Under the pieces are notes generated by a model. The model searched no databases. It worked only from the letters and a program-made list of their open reading frames with translations, and had not been told where the DNA came from. Of a DNA stretch of 64,000 bases, positions 35,353 through 36,579 are shown piece after piece (position 1 is the stretch's first letter; each line of letters begins with the position of its first letter). Source of the DNA: Turneriella sp. GTDB taxonomy: Bacteria; Spirochaetota; Leptospiria; Turneriellales; Turneriellaceae. Location: positions 1,235 to 65,234 of the forward strand of contig JABARV010000013.1 of assembly GCA_019186965.1 (NCBI GenBank), read 5' to 3'. The translations under genes and the position numbers were made by a program.

Positions 35353-36579
35353 GTGTGTTATACGCCCAAAAATATACCCTACACGATTATGACGTATAAT
35401 TACAACGTTAGCATCTTGAAAGACGACCTCGATATGCTCTTGCATAGGCCGTGGTATCGTGCCACGATACTTGAAGTCAAACACCTGATTGAAACGAACA
35501 TGCCACGCCAAAGCCCCGCCGAGCAGAACGCAGTCTTCGAGGCGTGGCAAAGAGAGCGACGACAATACATGCTCGAGGTACCTAGCATCTCCGGGCTTCA
35601 GCCCGGGGATATTAAAGATTCGCAGCAGCTACGGCCCGCTGATGTGAAAAAAAATATGCAGCCCCGTGTTACAACACAGAAATCCCAGCGCGATGCGGAC
35701 AACCACGCCCGGCTTGTAAACGACACTAGCCACAGACTTCAGTCTGTGGTCACCGGTAATTCGCTTGCCCTCAAAAAAATGATGCAACTGCGTAACTACG
35801 CGCACGCGACGATGCGTCAGTATGAGTTTTTGCTGCGCCACTTTGCTACGTACTGCGATGCGTTGGATGAAAAATTTTCACCGGCGGTCAGCGAAAAGTT
35901 GGTTGTCGACTACATGTTGGCGCGCCGCGAGGCGGGTTGGTCGACGACGACGCTGCGCACGTTTCGGGCGGCGCTGCGTCTCTATTGCGAGGCGAACGAC
36001 GCGCCGCGCGATTTCACGGTGATTCGTAATATAAAGAAAGAAAAGCGACTGCCGGTGGTGCTCACCGCATCCGAGGTGGCGCGGCTTTTGGCGACGATCC
36101 GTAATCCCAAGCATTGGCTGATGGTCTCGTTCATGTACGCGTCGGGTTTGCGCGTTTCAGAGGTCGTGCGCCTGCGCGTGCAAAACGTGAGCGTCGAGGC
36201 ACGCACGCTCACCGTACGGCAATCGAAAGGGCGCAAAGACCGCGTGACGGTGATTTCAGAAAAACAAGTGGCGTTGCTCGGTGAATTTATGGCGGGCAAA
36301 AATAAGGGGGATTTACTCTTTACATCGTCGCATGCGCCGCGTCGCGCATTGGCCGTGCGCTCGCTGCAAAAGGTGGTCGAACGTGCGCTCGCGCGCGCGG
36401 GTATTCAAAAGGGCGCAAGTGCGCATTCGCTTAGGCATTCGTTCGCGACGCACCTGCTCGAAAACGGTACCGACATTCGTTTCATCCAAAAGATGTTAGG
36501 ACACAGTTCGCTTTCAACAACGGCAATCTACACCAAAGTCGCGACGCACCAAATTGGTAAAATTAAAAGTCCGCTCTAA
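35353..36579 (+). CDS. Tyrosine recombinase (Xer/phage-integrase fold) with a long N-terminal extension; candidate cassette integrase
   Basis: Catalytic set: GLRVSEV (Arg), AHSLRHSFATHLL (HxxR), MLGHSSLSTT (His) and AIYTKV (Tyr). About 130 aa precede the SAM-like core-binding domain. The first ATG is at 35389; the listed start is non-ATG. Confidence 0.85.
   Translation: MCYTPKNIPYTIMTYNYNVSILKDDLDMLLHRPWYRATILEVKHLIETNMPRQSPAEQNAVFEAWQRERRQYMLEVPSISGLQPGDIKDSQQLRPADVKKNMQPRVTTQKSQRDADNHARLVNDTSHRLQSVVTGNSLALKKMMQLRNYAHATMRQYEFLLRHFATYCDALDEKFSPAVSEKLVVDYMLARREAGWSTTTLRTFRAALRLYCEANDAPRDFTVIRNIKKEKRLPVVLTASEVARLLATIRNPKHWLMVSFMYASGLRVSEVVRLRVQNVSVEARTLTVRQSKGRKDRVTVISEKQVALLGEFMAGKNKGDLLFTSSHAPRRALAVRSLQKVVERALARAGIQKGASAHSLRHSFATHLLENGTDIRFIQKMLGHSSLSTTAIYTKVATHQIGKIKSPL

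Follow-up and report, generated by a model that had tools for sequence, protein, structure and literature searches.

We analysed a 64-kb stretch of DNA from Turneriella sp. (assembly GCA_019186965.1, contig JABARV010000013.1, positions 1,235-65,234; hereafter the window), in which a gene for a tyrosine recombinase, here called the integrase, lies beside an array of at least 14 integron-like gene cassettes (Table 1). Read from its first GTG, the open reading frame (ORF; 35353-36579, + strand) encodes 408 aa, and its probable start is M13 (ATG 35389), as called by gene finders both for a metagenomic protein identical to the integrase (P0001) and for its closest homologue, a protein with 70% identity over the full length from a Turneriella metagenome-assembled genome (MAG; P0002). 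Pfam recognises PF00589 (Phage_integrase) at residues 236-398 (141 bits) and PF02899 at residues 144-211, with the core-binding domain beginning at about residue 138-144 of the ORF. The full catalytic set described in the initial annotation is present: the R-K-H-R-H-Y residues (R267, K292, H358, R361, H384 and Y393) occupy invariant columns in the alignment of the 23-member family to which the integrase belongs, and they match those of P. abyssi XerA, VchIntIA (IntI4) and XerD. We found no second tyrosine recombinase in the window, so that the integrase is the sole one there.

Table 1. Features of the cassette array and integrase locus (positions in the window; a slash marks a junction)
Feature	Position	Strand	Remarks
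Cassette array	997-34294	.	14 attC-like sites, 211-251 nt, one orientation
attC-like sites 1-5	997-1212, 1876-2126, 3245-3467, 5609-5824, 7132-7355		
attC-like sites 6-10	8124-8347, 9018-9240, 9908-10131, 11093-11310, 12151-12376		
attC-like sites 11-14	19668-19893, 29528-29744, 30050-30260, 34071-34294		
Internal copy of first cassette	9916-11100	.	
First cassette, at attI-like junction	34079-35263	.	structured site 34071-34294
Paired cassette ends, example	34287-34310 with 35240-35263		cassette 1
attI-like region	35264-35388	.	array ends CAGACAAC/TCC at 35263/35264
Conserved motif GTATTGC-N15-GTCAAGACA	35275-35304		in attI-like region
Integrase gene	35389-36579	+	ATG start, 396 aa plus stop; mechanical ORF from GTG 35353
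N-terminal three-helix domain, about 60 aa	35389-35580	+	family-specific; AlphaFold2
Variable linker, predicted disordered, into long helix before core-binding domain	35581-35769	+	AlphaFold model, comparison with P0002
Core-binding (SAM-like) and catalytic domains	35770-36576	+	Xer-like spacing, no I2 insertion; C-terminus ...KSPL
R267 (GLRVSE)	36151-36153	+	catalytic, ORF numbering
K292 (KGRKDR)	36226-36228	+	catalytic, ORF numbering
H358 (HSLRH)	36424-36426	+	catalytic, ORF numbering
R361 (HSLRH)	36433-36435	+	catalytic, ORF numbering
H384 (GHSS)	36502-36504	+	catalytic, ORF numbering
Y393 (IYTKV)	36529-36531	+	catalytic, ORF numbering

The sites of the array share one architecture, in which an R box (xxxACAAC/GTTGTxxx) is outermost and is followed by an asymmetric 5/3-nt spacer, an L box (ATTTAC/GTAAAT) lengthened by a few further pairs, and three inner hairpins. 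As single-stranded DNA a site folds with about -69 kcal/mol (z-score -8.6 to -8.9), and 27 of the 43 pairs of the consensus structure show compensatory changes. The cassette ORFs lie mostly on the - strand and, as in integrons, are transcribed in the direction leading away from the integrase. Complementarity between the two ends of a cassette was found in all 14: of the 28 nt after the GTTGT box, 17-24 can pair with the final 28 nt of that cassette, 0.5-10 kb away (one cassette requires a 1-nt indel), whereas the sequence adjoining the site in the array matches at 9-15 of 28 positions only. The exception is the site at 34071-34294, whose left flank stems from a related neighbouring cassette and matches at 23 of 28. 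Because the two ends of a cassette are matched to one another rather than to what adjoins them in situ, the full stem would form only in the excised circle. Position 11 of this circle-only stem is almost always a G.T pair, and in one related pair of cassettes the stem shows a compensatory change (AAATG/CATTT versus AATTG/CAATT); measured from the base of the stem, the crossover is about 24 bp up. We found no evident extrahelical bases in the L box of the sites, the asymmetric spacer and the G.T pair being the only conserved irregularities. With the cassette ends added, the + strand is more stable than the - strand in 14/14 sites, by 0.2-10.7 kcal/mol; it is the template strand of most cassette genes and corresponds to the 'bottom' strand that integrons recombine. 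Moreover, the sequence common to all crossover points amounts to only about 5 nt, which speaks against a classical exchange of two strands across an overlap of 6-8 bp and in favour of exchanging a single strand, with replication resolving the product as in integrons and in the integration of CTX phi by XerCD.

Cassettes move as units. The last junction of the array (CAGACAAC/TCC, 35263) lies 126 nt upstream of the integrase ATG, and the cassette that occupies it is 100% identical to the internal copy at 9916-11100. The identity begins inside ACAAC and ends right after the next ACAAC, and an identical copy with such borders is the pattern expected from excision and re-insertion at attI. The same arrangement was found at the Turneriella locus L001 (Turneriella sp. 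GCA_035444645.1), which has an attC-like site (5223-5439), one cassette and a junction (CCTAAC/T) 116 nt before the ATG, followed by sequence homologous to the attI side of the window. Its first cassette holds Lamassu-type genes (LmuB_C, MC3, CTD7), unlike that of the window. Furthermore, an efflux cassette (heavy-metal P-type ATPase/RND AcrB-type/OEP) is common to the window (12159-19675) and L001 (1-5230); both copies end in ...GTTCGCCTAAC at the crossover, and the next site and neighbouring cassette differ between the two genomes. The notion that homologues are never linked to such repeats did not hold, as the L001 integrase (70% identity) has both an attC-like site and a junction. In the initial annotation the enzyme also appears to run a cassette array; the placement of the gene as that of an integron integrase beside a genuine array is well supported, and the enzyme is a candidate for catalysing the exchange.

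The motif GTATTGC-N14-16-GTCAAGACA of the attI-like region occurs once in the window and otherwise only at L001 and at the locus of the basal family member P0026 (L007/L008). A search of metagenomes matched it in 120 stretches, none with a family recombinase beside the motif, and these matches were put down to chance. Downstream of the integrase the window carries dprA (36694-37506) and a small Smr-domain gene (37550-37828) and, farther on, a 193-aa ORF (37829-38410, - strand) followed by tRNA-Gly(TCC) (38425-38495). The L001 integrase has other downstream genes (UvrD-like helicase). As the downstream genes differ, the integrase/attI module stands in different chromosomal contexts in the two genomes.

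The integrase has the spacing of a simple Xer recombinase. As the initial annotation had counted, exactly 60 residues separate KGRKDR from HSLRH, and in an alignment of 121 sequences the distance from the catalytic lysine to the histidine (K-to-H) is 66. It is 66 in 23/23 family members and 64-74 in 77 other Xer-like relatives that lack I2, the additional domain of IntI (E. coli XerC 68, XerD 72), as against 106-112 in 21 IntI-type proteins, among them plasmid IntI1 and a Vibrio IntIA. The distances fall into two classes, with no value between 74 and 106. By phmmer the alignment with VchIntIA (2a3v) splits in two, residues 138-306 of the ORF matching 7-174 of the chain and residues 335-408 matching 244-317; chain residues 175-243 are skipped and about 41 residues are absent from the integrase. 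The comparison with IntI1 by tblastn showed the same, a 39-aa difference in length. In the AlphaFold model (predicted local distance difference test, pLDDT, 81) the chain passes from the beta hairpin to the HxxR helix without an additional helix.

Profile searches agree with this spacing. The best profile was NF040815 (XerA-type), with 209.8 bits, just under its cutoff of 220, and the second-best NCBIfam match was the IntI-specific TIGR02249, with 178 bits against a cutoff of 265 and in two stretches. The other IntI-specific model, PRK15417 (NF011946), reached 115.8 bits against 435, and the XerC and XerD models TIGR02224 and TIGR02225 were also below cutoff (170.2 against 335 and 171 against 329.6, respectively). 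In the place of the intI_Cterm profile of IntegronFinder we used a surrogate hidden Markov model (HMM) of the I2 insertion, made of 30 columns that are filled in the IntIs and empty in all other sequences, including the ALxRKYPxA motif. This surrogate scored at least 40 bits in 21/21 IntIs, did not match the integrase and stayed at or below 5 bits throughout the window translated in six frames, and no IntI remnant or I2-like peptide was found in any frame of the window.

For a neighbour-joining (NJ) tree of the same 121 sequences we used 264 columns, leaving out those of the insertion, and 200 bootstraps. A source of IntI and Xer sequences was a profile scan of genome contigs with the family alignment, in which no close family loci were among the matches listed, those having 29-48% identity. 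Family and IntI (n=21) were each monophyletic with 100% support, the family was not nested within the IntI clade, and an exclusive group of IntI and family had a support of 0.0. A supergroup with 99% support joined the family, IntI and XerA-like proteins of candidate phyla, archaea and Bacteroidota, with the XerC/D types outside, and within it the family grouped weakly with the XerA-like proteins of candidate phyla. An SPL motif at the C-terminus occurs in 23/23 family members, 20/21 IntIs and 57/75 others, and in neither XerC nor XerD, and Foldseek placed VchIntIA and XerA in a tie as top structural matches of the integrase. These comparisons indicate that the integrase is a relative of IntI outside the IntI clade, and that its family is one of small extent, Leptospirales-specific and made of simple Xer-type recombinases. 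The initial suspicion that the enzyme is probably not a member of the IntI clade is thus borne out by the missing I2, the sub-threshold IntI models and the position in the tree. Convergent evolution of cassette capture was also hypothesised there; the branching in the supergroup is not resolved (bootstrap 0.2-0.7), and so the tree does not choose between independent recruitment and a pre-I2-like lineage. An ancestral-like, pre-I2 state appears as compatible with the data as independent recruitment does.

The N-terminal extension, noticed from the outset as about 130 aa of unrecognised sequence, measures about 125 aa counted from M13 and is without detectable relatives outside the family. For its first part (the N-domain), AlphaFold2 with a 20-sequence alignment predicts a confident three-helix fold (pLDDT 92.7; helices 7-18, 27-37 and 43-63), and in the full-length model linker residues 69-111 are disordered (pLDDT <50). 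Identity to P0002 is 50% over residues 1-60, 22% over residues 61-127 and 89% over the core-binding and catalytic domains. Within residues 1-60, 15 codons differ from those of P0002 by synonymous changes only, and this comparison indicates that the extension is coding. In 20/23 family members there is weak conservation of the pattern E.xF....I...D...Y, after which comes a linker that contains proline. The N-domain had no match in Pfam or PHROG, no fold match in the PDB below E = 1, and by phmmer no relative beyond its own family among 1.84 billion representative proteins; a profile search returned one 109-aa fragment only. A further phmmer match, P0121, is a repetitive protein and was rejected as spurious. 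The initial annotation proposed the N-domain as a candidate reader of the extended stem or of the flank hairpins; that it would read the stem is an idea weakened by its occurrence in homologues of the main group of the family that have no array within 10 kb, and by three family members that do not have the domain.

Taken together, we think it likely that the locus is an integron-like cassette platform with a simple Xer-type integrase that belongs to a small Leptospirales-specific family and is not IntI. We also lean, if only slightly, towards regarding it as a functional analogue of the integron in Leptospirales (Turneriella-like spirochaetes), which would be run by an I2-less recombinase of a separate clade. 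In the mechanism that we envisage, the recombinase would bind the R and L boxes of a single strand in its folded form, and these boxes together with the unpaired spacer would mimic a Xer core site. Cleavage would take place beside AAC, a single strand would be swapped with the attI-like site or with a second folded site, and replication would resolve the product, as is the case in integrons. The choice of site and strand may come from the asymmetric spacer and the stem geometry, and possibly from the N-terminal helical domain, in replacement of the I2 contacts to extrahelical bases.

Several points weigh against this interpretation. Attempts to find attC-like hairpins or an attI motif within 10 kb of the integrase failed at all seven main-group loci (about 55% identity), so the family is not generally linked to arrays; a survey of the neighbourhoods of homologues, proposed in the initial annotation, returned an attC-like site and a junction at L001 and no such repeats at these seven. 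These loci were compared by minimum free energy profile, as the strict R/L-box pattern recovered just 5/14 sites of the window, because in situ the R boxes are chimeric, and is a weak negative elsewhere. No promoter, terminator or SOS box was recognised in a scan near the junction of the window. That the integrase would catalyse the exchange of cassettes is a prediction from sequence, and as the reading covers the 64-kb window, a canonical IntI may lie elsewhere in the genome. The sampling behind the NJ tree is skewed by search patterns, and the method was NJ on 264 columns. Finally, the passage of PMC9668308 that cites Messier and Roy (2001) gives the additional domain, on experimental grounds, as necessary for attC recombination by IntI.

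The other loci of the family have features of their own. The neighbourhoods of the main-group loci are conserved (one lineage has FKBP, ZapA, LOR, MlaC and MlaA, a second has STAS and FMO) and vary on the upstream side only, and an eighth contig, of which the gene context alone was compared, has the FKBP-ZapA neighbourhood too. Linkage to an array is documented for the branch of the window and P0002 and is hinted at for the basal branch of P0026. At the locus of the latter (L007; Leptospiraceae MAG GCA_020440825.1, 1847-3170) the attI-like motif is found 1.3 kb upstream of the integrase, from which it is separated by a 148-aa gene and a 220-nt branched hairpin (z-score -11.7). The outer stem of this hairpin is GC-rich and 17 bp long (2875-2891/3078-3094), the inner one AT-rich and 26 bp long. 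Seed-based hairpin density across all loci did not discriminate between them, and a series of hairpins in the AT-rich Pacearchaeota locus L018 was rejected as low-complexity noise. Just upstream of main-group integrases there are GTTC-N7-GTTC direct repeats with a TTTACA hexamer (L002, about 9950-9990; L005, about 9940-9975). Since these resemble a LexA box of alphaproteobacterial type, control of the SOS type could be considered for them. Around the nearest relatives from Firmicutes lie housekeeping genes and not IS91.

A first alternative is that a Xer-like enzyme, with a chromosomal housekeeping role or otherwise unrelated, adjoins the array by chance, and that a canonical IntI elsewhere in the genome, or one since lost, shuffles the cassettes, the array being a cluster of attC sites lacking an integron-integrase (CALIN). 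It would agree with the single conserved chromosomal genes without arrays, some of them beside zapA, that the main-group members represent, and with Cury et al. 2016, where recombinases without intI_Cterm near attC sites were judged not to be integron integrases (PMC4889954). However, the cases of Cury et al. had fewer than three attC sites each, compared with 14 here (PMC4889954). Moreover, the array stops 116-126 nt upstream of the gene in two genomes, with a conserved flank, a freshly duplicated cassette occupies that very attI-like junction, the gene has the orientation expected of intI, and every frame of the window is free of an IntI remnant or I2-like peptide. We therefore consider chance proximity unlikely.

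A second alternative, that the integrase comes from a true integron integrase lineage which lost I2 secondarily and compensated for it otherwise, could account for VchIntIA being a top structural match (tied with XerA), for the C-terminal SPL motif common to the integrase and IntI, and for TIGR02249 as second-best NCBIfam match. A passage of Smyshlyaev et al. 2021 (PMC8138268) also describes the insertion as 'not fully conserved' in the integron-like subgroup. Yet the 21 sampled IntIs form a 100% bootstrap clade that leaves the family out, the family going weakly with XerA-like proteins of candidate phyla, the SPL motif is shared by 57/75 I2-less relatives, and the short K-to-H interval is the same in 23/23 family members. 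Such a secondary loss is improbable in our view.

It is still harder to believe that the repeats are structured intergenic elements, such as repetitive extragenic palindromes (REP), miniature inverted-repeat transposable elements (MITE) or terminators, and that the duplicate cassette arose by homologous recombination. The sites are indeed GC-rich hairpins downstream of genes, far longer and more branched than typical attC. But the borders of the duplication fall inside the 5-nt ACAAC box and not in a long homologous repeat, one of the duplicates abuts attI sequence that is no repeat, the two ends of every cassette are mutually complementary across 0.5-10 kb, and one and the same cassette is flanked differently in the two genomes, the breakpoint lying directly after AAC. 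Finally, some IS91 members carry an associated tyrosine recombinase, and a Y2 transposase of this family lies at 30497-31681, within a segment (30357-36685) that a 39-nt direct repeat brackets together with the integrase; but we hold it for scarcely credible that the recombinase serves this element and not the array, and rejected the idea of an IS91-associated integrase, since the two genes are not adjacent within one IS (the 3.7 kb that separate them include an ATPase gene and one entire cassette), L001 has the same integrase/attI layout with no IS91 transposase called in 10 kb upstream or about 1 kb downstream (the extent of the contig), and the Y2 transposase is absent from all other family loci examined.

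The preferred reading, an integron-like platform with a Xer-type integrase, can be set beside known systems. The locus resembles sedentary chromosomal integrons in that the integrase is oriented away from an array beginning at an attI-like junction, in cassettes of one orientation that end in imperfect palindromes, which have AAC...GTT boxes, a spacer left unpaired and a terminal structure that varies, in the crossover at the R box, in the re-insertion of a cassette copy at attI, and in a cargo of toxin-antitoxin, defence-like and resistance genes. On the other hand, the integrase differs from theirs in having no I2, in standing outside the IntI clade and in its extra N-terminal domain; the sites are 211-251 nt long, with three inner hairpins and no obvious extrahelical L-box bases; and some cassettes are operons of 7.5-10 kb with their own regulation, for example by a fluoride riboswitch. 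Classical attC, moreover, differs from the sites described here, in which a cassette-specific extra stem of about 10-16 bp lies outside the R box and is formed only in the excised circle.

Closest to the integrase as a protein are the XerA-type recombinases of candidate phyla (NF040815; 'Cand' of Smyshlyaev et al. 2021), which provide its best profile (209.8 bits), have a K-to-H distance of 64-66 and the SPL motif, share 40-48% identity with it over the core-binding and catalytic domains and group weakly with it in the tree. They differ from it in their size of about 270 aa, without an N-terminal domain, and are thought to resolve chromosome dimers at dif. We know of no XerA-type recombinases linked to cassette arrays. 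In integrative mobile elements exploiting Xer (IMEX) of the CTX phi type, XerCD, which has no I2, acts on a folded single-strand hairpin with an unpaired centre that mimics the core site; one strand is exchanged and replication resolves the product. Unlike the system proposed here, these elements use the host dif site and whole phage genomes, with no cassette array and no adjacent dedicated integrase. In the pdif modules of Acinetobacter, sites of Xer type also bound gene modules that are shuffled between replicons, but these XerC/XerD sites are double-stranded, measure 28 bp and alternate in orientation on plasmids, whereas the sites of the window are long, folded, in one orientation and beside an integrase gene.

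We found no description in the literature of an integron in Turneriella or Leptospiraceae, of a comparable platform in Leptospirales or of an integron without I2. Both IntegronFinder and the literature define integron integrases by I2, and recombinases without it near attC are dismissed as unrelated (PMC4889954, PMC9668308); Ghaly et al. 2022 call the additional domain defining and necessary (PMC9668308). An array of 14 cassettes challenges this definition, since its end, its first cassette and its attI-like sequence all connect it, in two genomes, with a recombinase that has no I2, and current searches miss platforms without I2. If the proposed reading is true, cassette capture and shuffling via folded single-stranded sites would not need the additional domain of IntI. 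The locus would then represent a living form of the pre-I2 stage proposed for integron evolution, or else an independent invention, in which long branched sites, a circle-only stem and possibly a new three-helix N-domain would serve the choice of site and strand. At the same time, it would offer a handle on how single-strand hairpin recombination arose from double-strand recombination of the Xer type (PMC4792948, PMC7790495).

The cargo of the cassettes is varied. In the array region, an ORF with a match to reverse transcriptase (RVT_1) lies at the left edge of the window (130-594) and is possibly truncated by it. Small cassettes carry genes for a WD40 protein (2141-3223), a HerA/DUF87-type ATPase (3529-5484), DUF6941 (5831-6220), a HicB antitoxin with a helix-turn-helix (7412-7834) and DUF3592 (8448-8978). 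The second cassette counted from the integrase (30058-34078) has a site of the same type as cassette 1 and the same ends, and inside it are genes for the IS91-family Y2 transposase, which has a zinc-binding domain (30497-31681), and for a P-type ATPase (31924-33936), as though an IS91 element had inserted into the cassette together with a passenger gene. The copies of the 39-nt direct repeat, which are 85% identical, lie just upstream of this transposase (30357-30395) and just upstream of dprA (36647-36685), and they bracket a segment that runs from the transposase and the ATPase through cassette 1 and the attI-like region to the integrase. Cassettes reach 10 kb and include whole efflux and fluoride-resistance operons. 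The fluoride-resistance module sits in a 9.9 kb cassette (19676-29535) that also holds an RND efflux system; in it a fluoride riboswitch (Rfam RF01734; 27962-28028, - strand) precedes the gene of a CLC channel (26582-27952), with an enolase gene adjacent (28113-29402).

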